A stretch of 64,000 nucleotides of DNA, from positions 65,411 to 129,410 of the forward strand of contig JAGVWX010000019.1 in the NCBI GenBank assembly GCA_018304105.1, read 5' to 3'. Made by a program: the position numbers and the translations under genes. Position 1 is the stretch's first letter, and every line of letters begins with the position of its first letter. Under the pieces are notes generated by a model that was not told the DNA's origin, did no database searches, and saw only the letters and a list, made by a program, of their open reading frames with translations. This document shows positions 30,931 through 46,287 of this stretch, in pieces. This DNA is from Candidatus Pacearchaeota archaeon (GTDB taxonomy: Archaea; Nanobdellota; Nanobdellia; Pacearchaeales; GW2011-AR1).

Positions 30931-31430
30931 TTATCTACTGGCTCGATAAGCTTCCAGCATTTCAGGAAAGACTTGGTTGTTTGAAACTGCAATGATTCTT
31001 CTAGCGGTTTCATCGGTTGTTACTCCTATTTCATAGCCTAACGCGAGACAAACTGCTTCATCAACTTCTTCGAGGAGGCCAGAAAAAGATATTACATAAG
31101 GCGATTCGCCGGGGATAGGAAACAATACAGCACCGCCATATCTTTCTGTTTGTGCGTCTCTTGTTTGCCAGCTCGAGAATGTTCCTAAAGGGTTTCTGAA
31201 CCATCAGCCATAACTCTGAAAGCTTTTTCCTGAGAGAGACGGAGATATTTATCTGCTTTAATTGAATCTGGAATTTCTCCAGCAGAGATGAGCTCTCTAG
31301 TTCGAAACCAATCTGTTCCTACTGTGAGAACTCCTCCAGCGCGATGCTGCTCCCAATTGGAAGGCAAGGTTCTGGAGAGCGCGACCAGGTGAGATGCAGT
31401 TGAGCGAATCCGTTCCGAGTTCAATATCAT
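30931..31430 (-). pseudogene. Orphan gene split by a frameshift (31185-31430 plus 30931-about 31205)
   Basis: Frame A ends ...MADGSETL*; the overlapping frame reads WFRNPLGTFSSWQTRDAQTERYGGAVLFPIPGESPYV... with no ATG of its own. Confidence 0.45.
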
Positions 31431-31564
31431 TACTTGTCGATGTTGCTTGACTTTTTAAAAATTATTGTGATTTATTCTTTAGTGTTTTTGAGAAAATTAT
31501 CTCGATTTAGAGATAGACTCTGAATATTAGAAATGTTTAAATAGAATTTCAAATCATCAAATTT

Positions 31565-32059
31565 ATGAGAAAAACAATAATTTCAAAAGTTGCAGGTTTT
31601 GCAGGAGGTCTTGCGGCATCTGTGCTTGGAGCAGGCGCAGATGGATGCGATAGAAGTCATCAAACTCCAACTAGTCAACCGAGCGGTTATGCAACTACAA
31701 CTGCGCCTGTTCAAACAGTGAGAGAGGACGATCCGAAAACTTGGCCAGCACATATCGATCCGAATTGGGGGGCTGTAAAATCATATTGGGGTGAAGGAGA
31801 AGTTGAACATTTGGTCGGTGACGTTAGACTTAGGGGCTTTTATGATGATGGCGGCCAGTATGGCGAGGGGCATTGGAGATTCTTATACGCTCGAACCCTT
31901 GATGGTCAGGTGCTGCCGCTTAATTCAAGCACGCAACCTTCTGGAGCAAGGTTGGAACAGTATAAGGCGCTTGAAAGAGAATTCTCTGAAGTCAACGGAT
32001 ACGATTTAAATCGGAGAGTTTACGAAGCGATAGATTCTTTAAGAAATAAGGGACGTTGA
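31565..32059 (+). CDS. Secreted lipoprotein-like hypothetical protein
   Basis: Signal peptide ending LGAGADGC (lipobox-like); G/Y/W-rich. Confidence 0.45.
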   Translation: MRKTIISKVAGFAGGLAASVLGAGADGCDRSHQTPTSQPSGYATTTAPVQTVREDDPKTWPAHIDPNWGAVKSYWGEGEVEHLVGDVRLRGFYDDGGQYGEGHWRFLYARTLDGQVLPLNSSTQPSGARLEQYKALEREFSEVNGYDLNRRVYEAIDSLRNKGR

Positions 32060-32071
32060 TTTTGTAAGAGA

Positions 32072-32878
32072 TTATTTAGCGAAAATTGTAAATCCAAAAT
32101 CTTGAGCTAAGATTGAATTGAGATTCAGTAAATTGTCGCTTGCGCCGATTGAATACATTTTTTTTAGACTGTGCTGTTTTAGTAATTTGTCAAGGTCTGC
32201 TTCGGTGAAACTGCAAACTTTGTTGCAAGCGCTGCCGCAATCAATTCCCTGCTCTCCGGGATCTTGAATTGAATTGCCGCATAAATCTTGGGCGGAACAT
32301 CTGAAGTCTAATGTGGAACAATCGAAATCGCAATTTCCAGTCTTGCCTATTACGCATGCGCCGTCCAAACCACTTGCGGGGCAATCACTCGGGCATGAAA
32401 GGCGGTCTTCGCCGGATTCGCATTTCGTGTTTGAATTACAAAGTCTGTTTGGCAAAATGAAAGAATCCTTTAGGGTGTTATTGTAATAGATTTCTATTTT
32501 TATTACATTCTTTGAAGGGGCAACGAATACAATGTCTTTTGTTTTGTTTTTGATGTCTTCTTCAGGATTAAGCACGGGGACGTAGCCAACGAAAGCGGTT
32601 CCTTGCCTGCCAATGCCTTTCACGACGATAAAATAGGACAAATCGCGTTGGAATGAATTGTCTAAATTAATATCGCTTATTCCGAGGTTTGTCCTTTGGA
32701 AAGTTCTGCCTTGAATGTTCATATTTAATGGGACGTCGTAATAAACTGGATAACCAGAGTATGGCACTGAAGAAACTGTCACATCTGATTTAATGCTTAT
32801 CTTTATGTTTGCGCTTTCGGCAGCACTAGCTAAAGAGATTAAAAGAATTCCGAGCACTAATAGAATTATTTTTTTCAT
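32072..32878 (-). CDS. Secreted protein with Cys-rich C-terminal region (disintegrin-like CGNxxxDxGExGxDCG motif)
   Basis: Start MKKIILLVLGILLISLASA at 32878, ATGA overlap with the upstream gene; CGNSIQDPGEQGIDCGSAC. Confidence 0.65.
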   Translation of the reverse strand: MKKIILLVLGILLISLASAAESANIKISIKSDVTVSSVPYSGYPVYYDVPLNMNIQGRTFQRTNLGISDINLDNSFQRDLSYFIVVKGIGRQGTAFVGYVPVLNPEEDIKNKTKDIVFVAPSKNVIKIEIYYNNTLKDSFILPNRLCNSNTKCESGEDRLSCPSDCPASGLDGACVIGKTGNCDFDCSTLDFRCSAQDLCGNSIQDPGEQGIDCGSACNKVCSFTEADLDKLLKQHSLKKMYSIGASDNLLNLNSILAQDFGFTIFAK

Positions 32879-35634
32879 TTTGGACTCTCCAACTGGCATT
32901 TGTCCCAGTTTGCTGAACGCAGTTGACAGTACGAGCTTCGCGATGTGAGAGTTGGATAGATGTATATTTTGCTGACGCAAGGATTATTTAATTGAGAGTC
33001 GCCCATTATTGATAACGCTACGCAGGTGTTTGCCGTGTACGTGGCGTATCCTGGAAGAGTGTTTGCGTTTGGGTCTGGAGTATTAAAATTTGGATAGTAG
33101 GGCATTCCAGGGCAATTGTAACTTAGGGTCTGATCATTTTTGCAATACTCTGGAAATGGGTTTGGGCAGCCACCACTTTGAGTGGCATTTTGCAATCCCC
33201 ACCTTCCTAAATTATATTCGTCGCACAATGATGCATCAGAATGACCTTTTTCATGGGCAAATGTAGAACTTTTTCTCGCAGTGGCTTGTAAAATATACGC
33301 TTTGTCTATAAGGATTATTGGTGTTTCGGCAACGGAAAAAGAGTTATGAATACCCATAATAGTAACATCCACACTATCCAAGACCTTTATAATTGTCGTC
33401 GCATTCACATTAACTGACGAATTTGTAACTTTCAATTTATTGGGATTAAACAGGTCATTGGGCTTTAACACATCCATGTTAGTCCAGCTTACCTGCCTGT
33501 CTTTGGAAGAGTCAAATGAAATCCAATCGGACAAGTCCATCAAATTCATGGCGATTGATCCGTCTGGATTGGTGGGTTCAAAAGATGGCCCGTCATTTGG
33601 ATCATAAACTATTCTATCGATATAATAAATATTGGGATCGAAAGAATTTGACGCGAAAGCTAAAACTGGTTTTATGTCAGTTTCAAGTGCATGCTGTTTG
33701 GAAGTAAATGTACTGTTCATGAAAATTTGCTTGTCATACCATTGGATTGCTGACAATGTGTCACTAACTTGGTTATAGAACGATACTTGAGCAAATACGT
33801 TTGCGTCTATCTCGGGCGCATCCCAATTTACCGTGGCGGCTGCTCCAAACGGATTGTAAAGAACATTTGGAAAGCTTGGGTCTACTAATTGAAGACTGAA
33901 TGCGGGAAGTTTTCCTGTGACATTTCTTGGAATCCATACGGAGACTCTTTCCGCAACACCGATGGGGTCAGAAAATTGCGCTTTTTGCCTGAAATATATT
34001 GATTTTTCTTGTTTTGGATTGTCCATAAATGGATACGCCGCGCACATTACCCATTTTCCACGCCAGCCAGACGGAACTGTAAATTTCTTTGAACAACTAA
34101 ACTTCTTATGTCTAAGATTTTCCGGCAGTCCTTCGTCTCCAGAAATATATCCTTTGTCTTCGCAAGTTATTCCCCCATCGCCTTCTGATGGCATCAATGG
34201 TTTAGTTACACTTTGAGGTTGAGGCGCCAACCATTCAAATACTGAAGCATAACCGCCGCTTGTAAATCTTCCTTGTATTTCTGGGTTTGAAGTTGAAGGT
34301 TTCACAAAAGGATTTTTATAAAGTTCTTTTACAGTCTGCAAGAAGGATGGATTCTTCTCGGCATAAATCTCAAACCTCACAAATTGCTTGTCAAAACCAG
34401 CATTCCAAAACAAAGGTTCAGCCACAATATCAACATCGCATTGCAATTCAGAACCATCGACTGCTGTAAGAGTTCCAACATAATCTCCATTTTTTTCAAC
34501 TTCCAAAGGATATTGAATTGCGTTTAAGTTGGGGATACTTTCACAGTTCGGTTGATCTAAAGCAGAATAACCATCTCCATTTGAATCGTTATTGCTTTTA
34601 TCACAAACTTCTTTTTTCCCAATCACTTCTCTTTCTAAAAATTTATCATCTATGACACCATTGTCTTTTAATGCCCTTAGATAATCGCCGCTAAAATTAA
34701 TTTTTACATTTGATGCTTGCATTTTGCATCCTTTCCAAACTTGTTTAGATATTTCTCTTGCACGCACATCGTCTGAATTATTAATTCCGTTTTCATCTTT
34801 CCTAATGACTTCCGGCCCATCATAACAATCTCCATTTTCAAATGAGCCGCAAATGTATTTGCTATTGCTATTAGTTCCATATGATTCCGGCAATAACGGC
34901 GGCCCCCATTTGTATTCTTGCTTTTGATGTTGGTCTCCATCTAAATCCGCGCAGCAAGGCACGCCCCAATTATTTACTTTTGTAGTAGTATTTATTGGCC
35001 CTAAGTCTCCTGGCGTTTCTGATTGGGTTTGTGAAGTTTCTTTGATGAAGGAACAAATTGAACTTCTAACAGAACATGGCTGCACAGTTCTCCATTCCGG
35101 AGTATTACCAGCAAGCTGGCCATTTAAAATAGTGAACCATTCATTCTTTGCACATTCTCCTAACGTTCTCACTTCTATGTCTGTTTGAGTTTCGCCATTA
35201 TCGTATAAAATATATGGCGGTCTGCATTTTGCGTCTATGCCCCCATTGCCAAATACAAGCGAACGAATATTATCATCTTCTCCAGGCTGACAGACATCGC
35301 ACTTTGAACTATCTCCAACGTTATTATTATCTATATTTGTCGTTATAAAATATTTGTCAGTTCCAGGAGAACCAGTTGTAATTTCTTTGTTATATGAACA
35401 TTGTGTATAATTAAATGTGTCCGTCTGTCCGGCACTATCACATTTACAGTTTGTTATTTTAACAAAATTTATTCCATTGATACTAACATTGTAATCTTGA
35501 CTGCTAGAATAACATCTTACTGGTGCATTATACTCGAGGTTATCATGCCAAAAATAGCAGTCCTCCGCTTTCACATTCCCAATTAAAAAAATTGCGACGA
35601 ATAAAATTGCCAAAACAAAAACGAATCTTCTCAT
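32875..35634 (-). CDS. Giant secreted Cys-rich protein with C-terminal HExxH...DEY Zn-protease motif
   Basis: 919 aa, signal peptide, >40 Cys, FAHEKGHSDASLCDEY near the C-terminus. Confidence 0.7.
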   Translation of the reverse strand: MRRFVFVLAILFVAIFLIGNVKAEDCYFWHDNLEYNAPVRCYSSSQDYNVSINGINFVKITNCKCDSAGQTDTFNYTQCSYNKEITTGSPGTDKYFITTNIDNNNVGDSSKCDVCQPGEDDNIRSLVFGNGGIDAKCRPPYILYDNGETQTDIEVRTLGECAKNEWFTILNGQLAGNTPEWRTVQPCSVRSSICSFIKETSQTQSETPGDLGPINTTTKVNNWGVPCCADLDGDQHQKQEYKWGPPLLPESYGTNSNSKYICGSFENGDCYDGPEVIRKDENGINNSDDVRAREISKQVWKGCKMQASNVKINFSGDYLRALKDNGVIDDKFLEREVIGKKEVCDKSNNDSNGDGYSALDQPNCESIPNLNAIQYPLEVEKNGDYVGTLTAVDGSELQCDVDIVAEPLFWNAGFDKQFVRFEIYAEKNPSFLQTVKELYKNPFVKPSTSNPEIQGRFTSGGYASVFEWLAPQPQSVTKPLMPSEGDGGITCEDKGYISGDEGLPENLRHKKFSCSKKFTVPSGWRGKWVMCAAYPFMDNPKQEKSIYFRQKAQFSDPIGVAERVSVWIPRNVTGKLPAFSLQLVDPSFPNVLYNPFGAAATVNWDAPEIDANVFAQVSFYNQVSDTLSAIQWYDKQIFMNSTFTSKQHALETDIKPVLAFASNSFDPNIYYIDRIVYDPNDGPSFEPTNPDGSIAMNLMDLSDWISFDSSKDRQVSWTNMDVLKPNDLFNPNKLKVTNSSVNVNATTIIKVLDSVDVTIMGIHNSFSVAETPIILIDKAYILQATARKSSTFAHEKGHSDASLCDEYNLGRWGLQNATQSGGCPNPFPEYCKNDQTLSYNCPGMPYYPNFNTPDPNANTLPGYATYTANTCVALSIMGDSQLNNPCVSKIYIYPTLTSRSSYCQLRSANWDKCQLESPK

Positions 35635-37108: not shown

Positions 37109-37294
37109 TCATTTTTTCAGTTTCCAAATTTTATAAGGAATAAAAATATAAATAAAAACAATCATCAAACCTGTTATAACTCCAAGGGCATAAGAATCCG
37201 GAAGTAAATCAACGACACTAAAAATTAAAGGAAGCAGTAATGTAAACACGATTAGAAATAATACAATTAACAATACTTTGACATGCGCTTTCAT
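37109..37294 (-). CDS. Small membrane protein
   Basis: 61 aa, 2 TM. Confidence 0.4.
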   Translation of the reverse strand: MKAHVKVLLIVLFLIVFTLLLPLIFSVVDLLPDSYALGVITGLMIVFIYIFIPYKIWKLKK

Positions 37295-37295
37295 T

Positions 37296-37637
37296 TTATG
37301 CGTAAATCTGTTCTGCTGATTCCTGCTCGGCTTCTGGCAGGATATTTCTTTTTGTTAAACTCCAGTCAAGTTTAATTAGATTTTTGACAAAAGGATTTTT
37401 CAGATTGAATTTGTAATAATCAGATTTTCCAATTCTCCTAGTTTTGTAAACAATTCCTACCTTTATGAAATTAGGAAAGAAAACTTTGAGAGAATTATAG
37501 CTCACGTTGCTCTCTCTTGCTATTTCAGTGAGGGGAAAATCAAAAAAATGATTATCTATAAGAAAGTCTAGGACTCTCAATTGAGGCGTATCCCCAAACT
37601 GCTCCAAAAATAAACTTTTATTTTCTTTAGCTTTCAT
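37296..37637 (-). CDS. Winged-helix DNA-binding protein
   Basis: 113 aa; FPLTEIARESNVSYNSLKVFFPNFIKVGIVYKTRRIGKSDYY. Confidence 0.55.
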   Translation of the reverse strand: MKAKENKSLFLEQFGDTPQLRVLDFLIDNHFFDFPLTEIARESNVSYNSLKVFFPNFIKVGIVYKTRRIGKSDYYKFNLKNPFVKNLIKLDWSLTKRNILPEAEQESAEQIYA

Positions 37638-37757
37638 TGTTTAAACTCCCGTCATTACGTATGTAATGACGTGTAATTGTTTATTTAAATGTTTCTCTTA
37701 ATAGGGTTTATCTTTCATTTATGGAAACATTTAAAAGTAAATGGGATTTATAGACTT

Positions 37758-38018
37758 ATGCTGACTGACGAAGAGAAAGCGCAGATAATGTTTAAATTGG
37801 CTCGTAAAGATAATCGGGGTGCTAAGTATGATAGGACAGAACATTTCAAAAGATTTCAGAGTCTTGATAGGGCAATTAAAGAACTTTCTAATTTAGGATG
37901 GCTGCTTGTTCATAAAAAATCTAAGTTTGTTGGCTTGTCTTTAAACACAGAACATAAAAGGGAGATTGTCGAGTTTATCGAGAAGAATATGTCTTATGTG
38001 AAGGGAATGATTAAGTGA
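37758..38018 (+). CDS. Hypothetical small protein
   Basis: ATG 37758 is about 25 nt after TATA catttaaaagtaa. Confidence 0.4.
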   Translation: MLTDEEKAQIMFKLARKDNRGAKYDRTEHFKRFQSLDRAIKELSNLGWLLVHKKSKFVGLSLNTEHKREIVEFIEKNMSYVKGMIK

Positions 38019-38047
38019 TTATCTTAAAAAATTTCTGCTGAGATAAA

Positions 38048-38450
38048 ATGATCCCGCTGGCTTCGAATCAAAGATTCTCGCTCGTTCGTCTGCTTACACA
38101 TCCAAACGAGGGATCTGAAGCCTAAACTTTTTAGAAAAAAGTTTTGGCGCATCAAAAACTATAATTGGATTTGCTTCGCAAATCTTGGTTTCCGTAGGAA
38201 CAAACAGCAGGATTATAATATTTCGCTTTGCTCAATATTATTAATGATCCCGCTAAGCAAAATTGCTTAGCAATTTTCCATTCGTTCGTCTGCTAAAGCA
38301 TCCAAACGAGGGATTTGAAATACAAACCCCTTTAGAAAAGGTGTTTCTATGAGTTCCCCAAACTACAATAGTCCGACAGGCTTGTCGGAAGTTCACAAGT
38401 CGCTCAGCGACTTAGTTGGGATTCTACGAATCCCAATATGATCCCGCTGG
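38048..38450 (-). repeat. Three direct copies of tRNA-Ile 3' terminus (atgatcccgct[gg]) at 38048, 38244, 38438
   Basis: Spacing 196 and 194 bp. The two non-tRNA units share the core tcgttcgtctgct....catccaaacgagggatytgaa (38083-38119, 38281-38320). Region packed with perfect 7-9 bp hairpins. Confidence 0.8.
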
Positions 38451-38513
38451 GATTTGAACCCAGGACCTCCGCCTTATCAGAGCGGCGCTCTAACCAGACT
38501 GAGCTACGGAATC
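38439..38513 (-). tRNA. tRNA-Ile (anticodon GAT)
   Basis: GATTCCG TA GCTC AGTCTGGTTA GAGC G CCGCT CTGATAA GGCGG AGGTC CTGGG TTCAAAT CCCAG CGGGATC A; full cloverleaf, no CCA. Confidence 0.95.
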
Positions 38514-38579
38514 GTTTAGCAAAGTGTGGTTAGCAAGACTCTTTCAAGAGCGCACTTAACCAGACTGAGCTATGGAATC
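38514..38579 (-). other. tRNA-Ile 5'-half-like leader element
   Basis: GATTCCATAGCTCAGTCTGGTTA (22/23 identical to the tRNA 5' end) + AGTGCG CTCT-TGAA-AGAG TCTTGCTAACCACAC TTTGCTAAAC. Confidence 0.85.
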
Positions 38580-38602
38580 ATGTTAATGAAAAAAGATAAG
38601 GC

Positions 38603-38610
38603 TTTTATAA
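38603..38610 (-). promoter_or_regulatory. TATA box (TTTATAAAA on minus strand)
   Basis: 24-31 nt upstream of the first nt of the leader copy (38579). Confidence 0.6.
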
Positions 38611-38630
38611 ACGTTTTCCTAAGGTAAAAA

Positions 38631-39068
38631 ATGGAAAATCGGCAATGGGTTATGAATGTTTTGGTTTTATTGACGGTAATTGAAGTTGTACTTATTGGTT
38701 TTTCATCTTATAAAACTGCCACTTCGACAGAAGGTTTTTGCGTTGTTGGCCAGGCAAATGGGGGATGCGATTCTGTGCAAAGTTCAGTTTATAGCGCTTT
38801 TCTTGGCGTGAAATTAAGTTATATGGGATTATTTTCTTTTTTAGTTTTGCTTGTTGTTTTAATTCGAGATATTAGAAAGAAAAGAATTTCTGATTTGTTT
38901 GTTGGTTTTGCTTTGGTTGGATTTTTGTTCTCTTCGTATCTGATTTACATTCAGCTTTTTGTGCTGAAGCAGATTTGCACGACGTGCATGATGGCTGATG
39001 GAATCGCAATATTAATTTTCTTTGTGAGTTTAATTGCGAGGAAGAAAGCGCCGTTGGTCTATCGGTAA
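38631..39068 (+). CDS. VKOR-family (vitamin K epoxide reductase-like) membrane thiol oxidoreductase
   Basis: 4 TM, loop Cys pair (CVVGQANGGC) and CTTC (CxxC) in a TM helix; last 21 nt overlap tRNA-Gly. Confidence 0.6.
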   Translation: MENRQWVMNVLVLLTVIEVVLIGFSSYKTATSTEGFCVVGQANGGCDSVQSSVYSAFLGVKLSYMGLFSFLVLLVVLIRDIRKKRISDLFVGFALVGFLFSSYLIYIQLFVLKQICTTCMMADGIAILIFFVSLIARKKAPLVYR

Positions 39069-39118
39069 GATTCGAGCTTCCCAAGCTCGCGTGGCGGGTT
39101 CGATTCCCGCACGGCGCA
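39048..39118 (+). tRNA. tRNA-Gly (anticodon CCC)
   Basis: GCGCCGT TG GTCT ATCGGTA AGAT T CGAGC TTCCCAA GCTCG CGTG GCGGG TTCGATT CCCGC ACGGCGC A. Confidence 0.9.
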
Positions 39119-39140
39119 TCCCAAAATTTAAATAGTTGTT

Positions 39141-39434
39141 ATGCATGAAGTTCATATGGTAAAAGTGGTGAAAAAGGGCGGGAAGAAAGAGGCGTTCGTT
39201 CCTAAGAAAATAAGGACTTCTGTTCAAATGGCTGCGAAAGAAGCGGGAATGGCTCCGAGACAGATTGGGGATTTGATAGAAGATGTGGCTGAGCCCGTGA
39301 TTAAACTTTATAGCAAGAGAAGAGTTGTTAAGACTGCGGATTTGAGAAGGTCGCTTCTTGGAAGGCTTGACAGAAAGGCGAAGAAAGTTTCTGCGGCTTG
39401 GAGAAGGCATGAACGGAAGAGAAAGAAGAAATAA
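39141..39434 (+). CDS. ATP-cone domain protein
   Basis: VVKKGGKKEAFVPKKIRTSVQMAAKEAG ... ATP-cone pattern, basic tail. Confidence 0.6.
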   Translation: MHEVHMVKVVKKGGKKEAFVPKKIRTSVQMAAKEAGMAPRQIGDLIEDVAEPVIKLYSKRRVVKTADLRRSLLGRLDRKAKKVSAAWRRHERKRKKK

Positions 39435-44001: not shown

Positions 44002-44164
44002 TTTTTGGTAAGAAAGAAAAAATAAAAAATCAAATAATCTTATTTGTTTAGAACGAGCTAGTTGAAAGAAACCCTAAGTGGTTTTAACCCGAAGATTGAA
44101 TTTCAACAGCGACAAAAGCGAGTCCGTAATATTTTTCTTTTGAAATAAATAAGCCCACCGCATC

Positions 44165-44725
44165 CTCTGATGTAGTAGCTACTATTCGGTTCTAATTAAA
44201 TTTTACGGGAGGTGAAAATGGAAAAGGAACTGATAGTTAGCAGTGGTGCCGTCGGAGAAAGTAACTTTCACATTCAGCTGACACCAGCTTACCGAAGACC
44301 AATTTTTGAAAATGAGCAAACAGCTGAGTTGACGTTTGGTTACATTCTGGAAAAATTGTCTGAGCTAAAAGTTGTAATTGTCGCTTACAATTATGGGCCA
44401 GATCATTTGCATTTGTTTGTTGCAAATGTGAGATTTGTCAGCGAAGTAGAACTTGTCAGACAAATCAAAGGTTACAGCTCTTTCAAGATGCGAAGGCACT
44501 TTAGTTATCTTTTCGAAGATAAACTTTGGGGAGATAAGTTTTGGAGTGAGGGGCATTTCTATCGCAGCGTCGGTGCTGTGAACAAAGAGACGATGAAGCA
44601 CTACATCGAAGATTGTCAGGACAAGCATTGGGAAAAAATTGAAAGGCCAAAGTTTGTCGACTTATCTCAAAAGAGACTTGTTGATTTTTCGTCCTAAAAC
44701 GCTCGGGGCTTTAGCCCCGAGTAGT
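44165..44725 (+). mobile_element. IS200-like element or domesticated Y1 transposase locus (boundaries approximate)
   Basis: Perfect palindrome tagtagctacta (44173-44184) upstream and hairpin ctcggggc-ttta-gccccgag (44702-44721) downstream of tnpA. Confidence 0.55.
44212..44697 (+). CDS. tnpA: IS200/IS605-family Y1 (HUH) transposase TnpA
   Basis: DHLHLFV (HUH), IKGYSSFKMRRHF, FWSEGHFYRSVG...ETMKHYIE; probable ATG 44218 after RBS gggaggtg. Confidence 0.8.
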   Translation: MKMEKELIVSSGAVGESNFHIQLTPAYRRPIFENEQTAELTFGYILEKLSELKVVIVAYNYGPDHLHLFVANVRFVSEVELVRQIKGYSSFKMRRHFSYLFEDKLWGDKFWSEGHFYRSVGAVNKETMKHYIEDCQDKHWEKIERPKFVDLSQKRLVDFSS

Positions 44726-44968
44726 TTACACTTGTATGTTCATGGTCGTTTTGGTTTTAAATTGACTCCAAATAGAAATTATAATTATTTGGGTATTGAT
44801 GCTATGCTTGGAGTTCGTATGATGGATAATATTGACCCGGCCAAAGATAGTCGCTCTAGTTCTAGATATGGTGCATTTGTAAGTGAGCTCAATGCTGCTT
44901 TGAGTTAGTTATTATCTAAAAGTAGTTACATTCGTAAGGTTTAAAAATAGCTTCTAGTTTTCTTTTCT

Positions 44969-45517: not shown

Positions 45518-46059
45518 GTAATTTTCACGCAATTTCTTCCAGCCTTTTTTGCCTGATAAAGCGCGGCATCTGCACGCTTTGACATTCTTTCTAAATTGTC
45601 TTTTGGCTTGTATTCTGTGACGCCTAGCGAGATTGTAATCTTATATTTTTTGAGATAGCTTTCTGATAGGACAGATTTTCTCAGGCGCTCTGCGATGAGT
45701 CTTGCTCTTTGAGTTTTTGTGTTTGGAAGCATAATCAAGAATTCTTCGCCTCCAAATCTTGCGACTACGTCGTATTTTCTTACTTGGTGTTGGAGAAGCT
45801 GCGCGAGCTTGAGAAGTATTTTGTCGGCTTGCAAGTGACCGAAAGAGTCGTTTATTTTCTTGAAGAAGTCTATGTCAATAACAATAAGGGAGAGAGGTTT
45901 GCCTCTTCTGGCTTTGTCAAGTTCAAATGAGAAAACGTCTTTGAAGAATGAATGGTTGTATAAGCTGGTTTTCTCGTCGTGGGTTGCGATGTGATAGAGC
46001 TTGCTGACGTCTAAATTAATTTTGTCTAAAAGAGATTTTAAGGACGCTTCTTTTTTCAT
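45514..46059 (-). CDS. Stand-alone GGDEF-domain diguanylate cyclase
   Basis: TSLYNH.F, IDIDFFKKINDSFGH, RKYD (RxxD I-site) five residues before RFGGEEF, ADAALYQAKKAGRN. Confidence 0.85.
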   Translation of the reverse strand: MKKEASLKSLLDKINLDVSKLYHIATHDEKTSLYNHSFFKDVFSFELDKARRGKPLSLIVIDIDFFKKINDSFGHLQADKILLKLAQLLQHQVRKYDVVARFGGEEFLIMLPNTKTQRARLIAERLRKSVLSESYLKKYKITISLGVTEYKPKDNLERMSKRADAALYQAKKAGRNCVKIT

Positions 46060-46103
46060 GGTTTTAATTAGGTAACTTGGTTAATAAGTTTTTGGTAGGT
46101 AAT

Positions 46104-46111
46104 TTTAAAAA
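46104..46111 (+). promoter_or_regulatory. TATA box (TTTTAAAA)
   Basis: 24-31 nt upstream of the first nt of the leader copy (46135). Confidence 0.6.
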
Positions 46112-46134
46112 CACCTTTCTTGTTTTCTAAGTAT

Positions 46135-46212
46135 GGCCCCGTAGCTCAGTCTGGTTAAGTCCGCTCTCGGCAGAGAGTCTTGGAAACCACACCTCGCTAG
46201 GAATGCCATGAA
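46135..46212 (+). other. tRNA-Lys 5'-half-like leader element
   Basis: GGCCCCGTAGCTCAGTCTGGTTA (22/23 identical to the tRNA 5' end) + AGTCCG CTCTC-GGCA-GAGAG TCTTGGAAACCACAC CTCGCTAGGAATGCCATGAA. Confidence 0.85.
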
Positions 46213-46287
46213 GGCCCCGTAGCTCAGCCTGGTTAGAGCACTGGACTCTTAATCCAGGTGTCGCGGGTTCAATTCCCGTCGGGGCCG
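46213..46287 (+). tRNA. tRNA-Lys (anticodon CTT)
   Basis: GGCCCCG TA GCTC AGCCTGGTTA GAGC A CTGGA CTCTTAA TCCAG GTGTC GCGGG TTCAATT CCCGT CGGGGCC G. Confidence 0.95.

Follow-up and report, generated by a model that had tools for sequence, protein, structure and literature searches.

A 64,000-nucleotide (nt) stretch of DNA from a Candidatus Pacearchaeota archaeon, referred to here as the window, carries an intact tRNA-Ile(GAT) gene on its minus strand, followed directly by two non-coding units that each end in a copy of the 3' end of that tRNA. The units are insertions of composite anatomy whose repeats match the host tRNA, and they belong to a family that is present in several genomes and conserved in structure. 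Elsewhere the window encodes a CDC48-type AAA ATPase, RtcB and glycolytic enzymes, and its tRNA genes lack an encoded CCA. The nearest homologues of its GGDEF protein carry the labels Nanoarchaeota or Candidatus Pacearchaeota archaeon, and identical copies of window proteins were present on groundwater (Rifle) metagenome contigs; the host is thus a DPANN archaeon. The features of the locus are as follows, in the direction of tRNA transcription.

38604..38611, minus strand: TATA-like box (archaeal) TTTATAAA of the tRNA-Ile transcription unit, read from the sequence and predicted to act as its promoter
38557..38579, minus strand: copy of tRNA-Ile nt 1-23, 22/23 identical, at the tRNA start position of relatives
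38514..38556, minus strand: remainder of the 66-nt leader, with a hairpin; 38517-38533 is complementary to a D-arm segment
38439..38513, minus strand: tRNA-Ile(GAT), intact, no encoded CCA (ARAGORN; Rfam tRNA 71.2 bits)
38320..38437, minus strand: body of unit 2, a hairpin chain with hp1 at 38416-38436, a hairpin at 38397-38413, hpX at 38372-38389, and others
38310..38319, minus strand: unit 2 copy of tRNA-Ile nt 54-63, TTCAAATCCC, 10/10
38255..38309, minus strand: module B of unit 2, with the core hairpin at 38282-38309 and a second hairpin at 38259-38277, ending in GCTT
38244..38254, minus strand: direct repeat 1, AGCGGGATCAT, tRNA nt 64-73 plus 1 nt
38120..38243, minus strand: body of unit 1, with hp1 at 38216-38240, hpX at 38168-38184, and hpY at 38124-38144 with T5 and T6 runs
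38205-38213, minus strand: ATCCTGCTG in the unit 1 body, complementary to the terminal repeat
38110..38119, minus strand: T-loop-like segment of unit 1, TTCAGATCCC, 9/10 to tRNA nt 54-63
38061..38109, minus strand: module B of unit 1, with the core hairpin at 38082-38109 and a second hairpin at 38065-38077
38048..38060, minus strand: direct repeat 2, CCAGCGGGATCAT, tRNA nt 62-73 plus 1 nt
38023..38047, minus strand: ancestral 3' flank TTTATCTCAGCAG, then a T6 run, probably an archaeal terminator

Repeats and composite anatomy

A preliminary reading of this DNA (the sequence-only reading) had placed a tRNA-derived repeat at 38048, 38244 and 38438, the last copy being the real tRNA 3' end, and the analysis confirmed this arrangement. 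The 13-mer ATGATCCCGCTGG occurs exactly at 38048 and at 38438, where it is the 3' end of tRNA-Ile(GAT) on the minus strand, and in 11/13 nt at 38244, with spacings of 196 nt (38048 to 38244) and 194 nt (38244 to 38438). The 13-mer count by itself is weak evidence, as three matches were also obtained in 5/100 shuffles; a 33-nt core was never obtained in shuffles. A chance origin of the repeats is excluded by their regular spacing together with the homologues in other genomes described below. An assembly artefact was also ruled out: 13 contigs of the window's population, each assembled independently, share the locus over 620 nt and show 3 single-nucleotide polymorphisms in total.

Each unit consists of a hairpin-chain body of ~120 nt, a copy of tRNA nt 54-73 and a nested module of ~50-55 nt, module B, which interrupts the tRNA copy between nt 63 and 64. 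Because module B splits the distal tRNA fragment in this way, only 11-13 nt had seemed to be repeated. The core common to both units had been described as starting like a T-loop, and its start is in fact a genuine copy of tRNA nt 54-63: in the tRNA-Ile unit of a related locus, L060, TTCAAATCCC continues directly into AGCGTGATCA, giving an unbroken 20-nt copy of that tRNA's own nt 54-73. Positions 38310-38365 (56 nt, comprising the end of the unit 2 body and the T-loop copy) are 100% identical to this L060 unit. The further idea that the T-loop copy tracks the host tRNA was set aside as only suggestive, the positions concerned also being kept as purines by pairing with UUUGA. Similarity between the two window units extends well beyond the 37-40-nt core to which the sequence-only reading had confined it, with a 64-nt block 75% identical and the full lengths 59% identical with hairpins at matching positions; all of the hairpins listed in that reading are present.

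The core hairpin of module B, UCGUUUG-GA-UGC-NNNN-GCA-GA-CGAACGA, forms in unit 2 a 7-bp stem, a GA/GA internal loop, a 3-bp stem and a tetraloop. Outside the tetraloop it is identical in 4 pattern-matching copies from 3 genomes, and the copy in locus L014 is slightly different. Module B was also found in the units of loci L014 and L021, and as part of truncated units in the long leaders of two tRNA-Thr genes; GCCTC before the core in these leaders is probably a diverged T-loop-like segment and not an acceptor-strand copy. Repeat length varies with the presence of the module, at 10-13 nt in units that contain B, 20-22 nt in units that lack it (20 in L060, 22 in L064) and 24-26 nt in short cases that have a spacer only. 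The inserts measure 113-185 bp and the units 134-196 nt.

Coding and tRNA-like functions were considered for the units and found wanting. They contain no open reading frame (ORF) above 47 amino acids (aa), and a plus-strand peptide motif over the core, VRLL.HPNEG, is interrupted in L014 by an indel of 1 nt. Neither ARAGORN nor Rfam detected a tRNA within the units. Decayed tRNAs, 3' halves and multi-intron tRNAs were rejected as well, because the bodies have no similarity to tRNA nt 1-53 (semi-global alignment against shuffles, z = -1.0, 0.6, -0.3) and no T-arm can form.

Filled and empty sites in related genomes

To find homologues of the units, metagenome and genome collections were scanned with sequence patterns, and protein anchors were then used for retrieval. 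A first, stricter genome pattern scan, with a pattern that was too strict, gave no match. A relaxed genome scan gave 42 matches. Bacteria accounted for 38 of them, through a response-regulator coding motif or by chance; two of the three archaeal matches were also due to chance, leaving L021 as the only real one. Altogether, homologous units were identified at five loci in four other genomes, next to tRNA-Lys, tRNA-Thr and tRNA-Ile genes.

L021, tRNA-Thr(CGT): terminal repeat GGTAGAGGCTTA, spacing 187 nt
L014, tRNA-Lys: terminal repeat GTCGGGGCCG, spacing 196 nt
L064, tRNA-Lys: 22-nt repeat, spacing 143 nt
L060, tRNA-Ile: 20-nt repeat, spacing 134 nt
L016, tRNA-Thr(GGT): degenerate copy, no repeat, spacing not applicable

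Where a unit has a terminal repeat, it corresponds to the 3' end of the unit's own host tRNA, namely AGCGGGATCA (window) and AGCGTGATCA (L060) at tRNA-Ile, GTCGGGGCCG at tRNA-Lys and GGTAGAGGCTTA at tRNA-Thr. The bodies cross these boundaries. The central block of unit 1 is ~90% identical to the L014 tRNA-Lys and L021 tRNA-Thr units, and unit 1 as a whole resembles the units that other genomes carry at Lys and Thr genes more closely than it does its neighbour in the window, unit 2. Profiles of the units and of the core hairpin matched only tRNA-flanking sites in 194 kb of related DNA, so that no unit was found away from a tRNA gene. Between the window and L060, the 56/56 nt identity of the units compares with 64/141 aa (45%) for the adjacent VKOR protein and 71/75 nt (95%) for tRNA-Ile; such identity despite host divergence indicates that the units either spread horizontally in recent times or are under very strong constraint, and is not what neutral intergenic DNA would show. 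L060 also carries one unit fragment in inverted orientation behind tRNA-Gly, which fits an event at the DNA level. A search of the literature returned no description of such units, and these small, non-coding, hairpin-rich inserts at tRNA ends in related DPANN archaea are a previously undescribed family.

Comparison of orthologous loci revealed empty sites. In L014 and L015, whose VKOR proteins are 62% and 55% identical to that of the window, the order promoter, tRNA-Ile, VKOR, tRNA-Gly is kept and nothing lies behind tRNA-Ile. Occupancy at tRNA-Ile is therefore two units in the window, one in L060 and none in L014 and L015; at tRNA-Lys, a unit is present in L014 and L064 and none in the window, L059, L060 or L062. 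The sequence that follows the last repeat, TTTTATCTCAGCAG in the window and TTATAGCCCAGCAG in L060, matches the sequence found directly behind the tRNA at the empty L015 site, TATTTGCCCAGCACG. The window flank TTTATCTCAGCAG likewise has a counterpart, GCCCAGCA, directly behind the tRNA in L015 and behind the unit in L060. With orthologous sites both filled and empty, and with the ancestral flank behind the last repeat, these data show that the units are insertions. By the acceptor type of tRNA-Ile, the window groups with L015 and L014 with L060; occupancy cuts across this grouping, and at least two gains or losses must therefore have taken place.

Hairpin conservation and the origin of the units

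Both window units fold far better than shuffled sequences (z -7.1 and -5.7). Hairpins at equivalent positions differ in sequence and are still paired (GATTTGC/GCAAATC, ATTCAC/GTGAAT, TCCGACA/TGTCGGA and TGGCA/TGCCA), and the same holds for hp1, with TTGGGATTC/GAATCCCAA as compared with CTTGGTTC/GAACCAAG. Across the three unit-1-type copies, the only ones entering this comparison, 92% of cells were paired, as compared with 19-57% when the partners were slid, and 4 pairs had changed on both sides, a number reached by 9/500 shuffles. Drawn from three sequences only, the compensatory-change statistics lend support to conserved helices but do not prove them. Folding favours the tRNA-sense strand over the antisense strand, by ~10 kcal/mol in both window units and by 11-18 kcal/mol in the long leaders, and the G-U pairs fall on the sense strand. 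In most units an internal stretch is complementary to the inner boundary of the repeat (ATCCUGCUG/CAGCGGGAU in unit 1, UGGGAUUUG/CAAAUCCCA in L060).

Known RNA classes did not account for these folds. A search of 37600-39200 with Rfam 15 returned the tRNA only, the remainder scoring <=24 bits against gathering scores of 39-90, with no match even at E up to 10. C/D box, H/ACA, K-turn and hammerhead assignments for the core hairpin were rejected on inspection by eye, the GA/GA internal loop being accompanied by neither a 3-nt bulge nor box motifs. Bulge-helix-bulge splicing of the leader, the units or module B was rejected after a hand check of the folds, in which no 3-nt bulge pair 4 bp apart was present at the edges; the exon-like pieces, when joined, give no tRNA.

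The explanation we favour, to which we would give an even chance of being correct, is that the units are small non-autonomous insertion elements that arrive by att-type recombination at the segment from the T-loop to the 3' end of a tRNA gene, here in tandem and with a nested module B. Because the repeats start in the T-loop, reach or pass the 3' end and vary in length, they have the character of an att-type recombination footprint and not of a fixed target duplication. The two window units would be tandem copies from two diverged subtypes of an element specialised for tRNA 3' ends within a Nanoarchaeota/Pacearchaeota subclade. Entry would be by site-specific recombination between the T-loop and a point just past the tRNA 3' end, leaving the tRNA intact and a copy of its 3' part at the far side of the insert, hence the direct repeats; a second insertion adjoining the tRNA would then give the array tRNA, unit 2, unit 1. 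The nesting of module B in the distal tRNA fragment would have cut the visible repeat to its present length. The tRNA-sense strand is predicted to fold into the hairpin chain, including a stem between the internal segment and the repeat boundary, and this folded single strand, either a read-through RNA or single-stranded DNA (ssDNA), would presumably be recognised by a trans-acting enzyme. Recognition of a folded single strand is suggested by the compensatory hairpins and the sense-strand bias. The recombinase type of the mechanism, mobilisation in trans and the choice of folding nucleic acid are inferred. A structured RNA made together with the tRNA may be part of how the element works.

Several observations weigh against this explanation. 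No integrase, Cas1 or other recombinase was detected with Pfam among the ~60 window ORFs scanned; the only recombinase-type candidate is an IS200-like Y1 transposase gene (44212-44697), which lies 6 kb away and whose element has ends unrelated to the units. No larger parent element was found, and none with a unit body split around cargo genes in the 194 kb of related loci. The sequence-only reading had proposed comparing the units with viral or plasmid contigs: IMG/VR viral contigs gave no match to five unit and leader motifs, and a BLAST search of the locus against phage and plasmid collections matched the tRNA part only. All 13 contigs of the window's population have both units, and no current mobility is visible. 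A single sequence-specific att site cannot explain the presence of one body at Ile, Lys and Thr genes, and the repeats vary from 10 to 26 nt and extend 0-7 nt beyond the tRNA end. Of the two findings that the sequence-only reading had named as refuting it, units away from tRNA genes were not encountered, and units without a terminal repeat were limited to three copies, the L016 trailer unit and the two leader copies in L016 and L021, so that its idea largely withstood both checks. Finally, protein-binding att arms do not typically show compensatory evolution of hairpins. The tandem integration into a tRNA 3' end proposed by the sequence-only reading thus holds as regards the att-like repeats, the stacking and the empty sites, but is not matched by any integrase, cargo gene or viral or plasmid counterpart; and its simple tandem units gave way to composite ones, with a nested second module and with the same body at different tRNAs.

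The main rival, mentioned already in that reading as a structured non-coding RNA, is that the units are functional structured RNAs of a tRNA-Ile precursor running from the 5' copy to the T-runs in or after unit 1, with presence and absence reflecting loss and not mobility, which we judge unlikely. In this scheme the tRNA-derived 3' tails would pair with the internal segment or with the 5' copy into acceptor-like stems, to be cut or marked by tRNase Z and the CCA-adding enzyme. The arrangement of the locus is consistent with such a precursor, in that the TATA box precedes the 5' copy, a T6 run follows unit 1 and there is no separate promoter in between. In a 566-nt fold, the 5' copy (AUGAUUCC) forms a stem with the unit 2 end segment GGGAUCAU and unit 1 is closed by AUCCUGCUG/CAGCGGGAU, and tRNA-Ser(CGA) of the same genome is predicted to have the same outer stem. 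The more stable sense-strand fold, the helices apparently maintained through compensatory and wobble changes, the very high sequence conservation and the tRNA orientation of 8/9 unit copies are also as expected of an RNA. On the other hand, close relatives have orthologous tRNA-Ile and tRNA-Lys loci without units, in a pattern that does not follow relatedness, and the copies differ in anatomy, with or without B, one fragment (in L060) even being inverted. The conserved T5 and T6 runs in unit-1-type copies should halt archaeal RNA polymerase before the 3' tail is reached, and in L014 a T5 run stands directly behind tRNA-Lys, ahead of the unit. The T-loop copy cannot form a T-arm, and the lack of any Rfam match, even at the permissive threshold, also speaks against a functional RNA.

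Repeats that run from the T-loop to the 3' end or beyond are the classic footprint of tRNA-targeting integrases, so the units could alternatively be deletion scars of kb-sized integrated viruses or plasmids, with fused arms left between attL and attR. Past unit 1 the window has ~1 kb of extra small genes (the unannotated ORF109 and ORF113 and a small hydrophobic ORF) that are not found in L014, L015 or L060, and ORF113 has a weak PHROG match. We nevertheless consider this origin very unlikely: independent random deletions would not yield the same ordered hairpins, at 134-196 nt, at Ile, Lys and Thr genes of five genomes, no intact relative turned up, either among the related loci (194 kb) or in the viral, phage and plasmid collections, and no further att or repeat copy that could delimit a larger island is present within the window. 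Purely local events, that is, tandem duplication or replication template-switching at tRNA gene ends, appear highly improbable as the source of the units. They are suggested by direct-inverted-direct partial copies with 31-57-nt spacers at many tRNA ends of the clade (for example tRNA-Gly in L014 and L061, tRNA-Ser in L015 and L063), by the weak likeness of the L063 tRNA-Ser spacer to the flank after the second copy (z 2.3; 36/2000 shuffles) and by the possibility that the two window units arose by tandem duplication and then diverged. Such events leave unexplained both the homologous bodies at different tRNAs in different genomes and the 56 identical nt between genomes with 45% VKOR identity, and the flank after unit 1 is unlike the start of a unit. 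Homology across genomes refutes local duplication as the only source of the units; the short copies at other tRNAs may have arisen in this way.

A bolder variant of insertion is guidance by structure or pairing in place of a fixed att site. A folded strand of ~130-195 nt, RNA or ssDNA, would insert behind essentially any tRNA gene by means of target-matched segments, these being the terminal repeat and an internal stretch whose complement is the T-stem/acceptor boundary. In combination with the 5' leader copies described below, it would be an active source of tRNA fragments with adjacent complement, raw material for split tRNA genes in the Nanoarchaeota lineage. We hold this variant to be quite unlikely.

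Compared with known systems, the att-bounded insertion elements that we favour show only partial likenesses. Repeats of tRNA fragments in archaea flank elements of 9-23 kb, with 44-bp repeats, as in PYG1 of Pyrococcus yayanosii (PMC9897764). The units share with such attL/attR integrated elements an intact tRNA at one end of the insert and a copy of the 3' part of that tRNA at the other, a repeat that runs from within the T-arm to or past the 3' end, empty sites in relatives and tandem stacking. They differ in being 113-185 bp instead of 9-23 kb, in lacking an integrase or any gene, in having one body at three tRNA species where one specific target gene per family would be expected, and in consisting of a conserved hairpin chain with the distal tRNA fragment interrupted by a second module. 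CIMEs are cis-mobilisable elements of streptococcal integrative and conjugative elements (ICEs) that are att-flanked, lack recombination genes and are built by accretion; they are kb-long, derive from known ICEs with a known integrase and use a single target gene. Like CIMEs, the units are non-autonomous and att-bounded and occur in tandem with three repeat copies, and they are proposed to borrow a recombinase from another element; unlike CIMEs, they differ in their targets, and no parent element or enzyme was found for them.

MITEs, REPINs and PATEs are miniature hairpin-forming elements that are small, non-coding, non-autonomous and horizontally shared. The units resemble them in all of these respects and in being structured, and an IS200-type Y1 transposase is encoded in the window; they differ in having neither terminal inverted repeats nor a target duplication of fixed length (their repeats are 10-26 nt), in lying only beside tRNA genes and not dispersed, and in having hairpins unlike the ends of the resident IS200 element. 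Mobilisation by this resident transposase, or by REP-like repeats, was rejected, as the end hairpin of the element is unique in the window and unlike the units. Casposons use a Cas1 casposase and have terminal inverted repeats and a 14-15-bp target duplication. Casposon- or CRISPR-type insertion would similarly place inserts at a tRNA 3' end with the target duplicated and with tandem arrays sharing a repeat, but no Cas1 was present among the scanned window ORFs, and the units lack terminal inverted repeats, have repeats of 10-26 nt and form inserts of ~0.2 kb. Precursors that contain tRNAs can also release other RNAs, as with the tRNA-linked C/D box small RNAs of Nanoarchaeum and mascRNA, and split tRNA genes occur in Nanoarchaeum equitans. 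Common to these and the units are a structured RNA in one transcription unit with a tRNA (as predicted here) and tRNA-like 3' ends, and, for split tRNA genes, tRNA fragments beside complementary sequence in a lineage related to the split-tRNA one. In contrast, the units lack C/D or H/ACA boxes and, by hand check, bulge-helix-bulge motifs at their boundaries; the tRNA is intact, and the units are not conserved at orthologous loci.

Self-copies at other tRNA genes and neighbouring DNA

Partial copies of a tRNA's own ends were present at 12/19 tRNA genes inspected in the clade. The sequence-only reading missed one of them, the 23-nt copy of the tRNA-Ile 5' end at 38557-38579. This copy, like those at the window tRNA-Lys (46135-46157), the L015 and L063 tRNA-Ser genes and the L064 tRNA-Lys, sits exactly at the tRNA start position of relatives. 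The tRNA-Ile TATA box and AGCCTTATCTTTTT are kept in L014, L015 and L060, where they precede the tRNA itself by 23-26 nt. Copies of 3' ends are also present, often with an adjoining inverted copy. tRNA genes are classic landing sites for integrating viruses and plasmids, and the known footprints are kb-sized and integrase-bearing; here the same type of footprint surrounds gene-less, modular inserts of 113-185 bp at several tRNAs in quite distant genomes. If the inserts are mobile, some machinery in these tiny-genome DPANN archaea recognises tRNA gene ends generally; if they are RNAs, they form a new class that rides on tRNA precursors. The self-copies at 12/19 tRNAs, often beside complementary sequence, bear on the origin of split tRNA genes in Nanoarchaeota, and in these genomes they will mislead both the annotation of tRNAs and the prediction of att sites.

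The tRNA-Lys(CTT) gene of the window (46213-46287, plus strand) has a leader at 46135-46212 whose first 23 nt are a copy of the 5' end of the same tRNA. They follow a TATA-like box by ~22 nt, at the position where tRNA-Lys itself starts in L060. This leader is homologous to the tRNA-Ile leader at 38514..38556 in its non-tRNA hairpin part (GCTCTYG..AGAGTCTTG..AACCACAC..GCTA), and each leader starts with its own acceptor strand; L064 has a shorter orthologous tRNA-Lys leader. The tRNA-Ser(CGA) gene at L063:15871-16068 (minus strand), in the window's genome ~5 kb past the left end, has a copy of its nt 1-14 at 54 nt upstream and an exact 24-nt copy of the T-arm and acceptor 3' strand at 39 nt downstream, followed by T6. 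In the predicted fold the first 7 nt of the transcript pair with the last copy. Local tandem duplication is a possible origin of the L063 copies, given the weak spacer likeness mentioned above.

Trailers of tRNA-Gly(CCC) vary among relatives. That at L014:10487-10569 (plus strand) has 57 nt and then a 26-nt copy of the T-arm and acceptor, that at L060:14184-14363 (minus strand) has 167 nt, the inverted unit fragment among them, and then a 12-nt repeat, and that at L061:12520-12602 (minus strand) has a short inverted and a direct copy; no trailer copy is present in the window (39048-39118) or in L015. At its 3' end the VKOR ORF runs into the tRNA-Gly gene, with an overlap of ~20 nt (window), ~15 nt (L014 and L015) or ~10 nt (L060).

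Just past unit 1, at 37109-38018, the window has three small ORFs, ORF109 (plus strand), ORF113 (minus strand) and a 61-aa hydrophobic ORF (minus strand), at the position where L014 and L060 have a small ORF, MKSEKEKHDEYILKRL... The weak match of ORF113 is to phrog_18520. These three ORFs could be left over from foreign DNA that entered the same tRNA hotspot. Further along, the window block 31100-35634 encodes a 919-aa protein and neighbours, for which neither Pfam nor PHROG gave a match. L014 lacks this block between the CDC48 gene and a Zn-ribbon ORF, and in the strain variant L008 other genes take the place of part of it; it is a variable island. The IS200-like element (window 44020-44740) has a GC-rich end hairpin at 44702-44721 and is inserted behind a TFIIS-type zinc-ribbon gene, a site at which L014 does not carry it. 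In the window (46059-46287), L060 and L064, tRNA-Lys diverges from a GGDEF gene; the L014 gene (L014:17066-17325) is inverted relative to these, with its unit between tRNA-Lys and the GGDEF gene and with the contig ending within the tRNA. The tRNA-Lys(CTT) gene at L064:4327-4423 (plus strand), missed by ARAGORN, has an intron of ~21 nt after the anticodon loop, and its window orthologue is intron-free.

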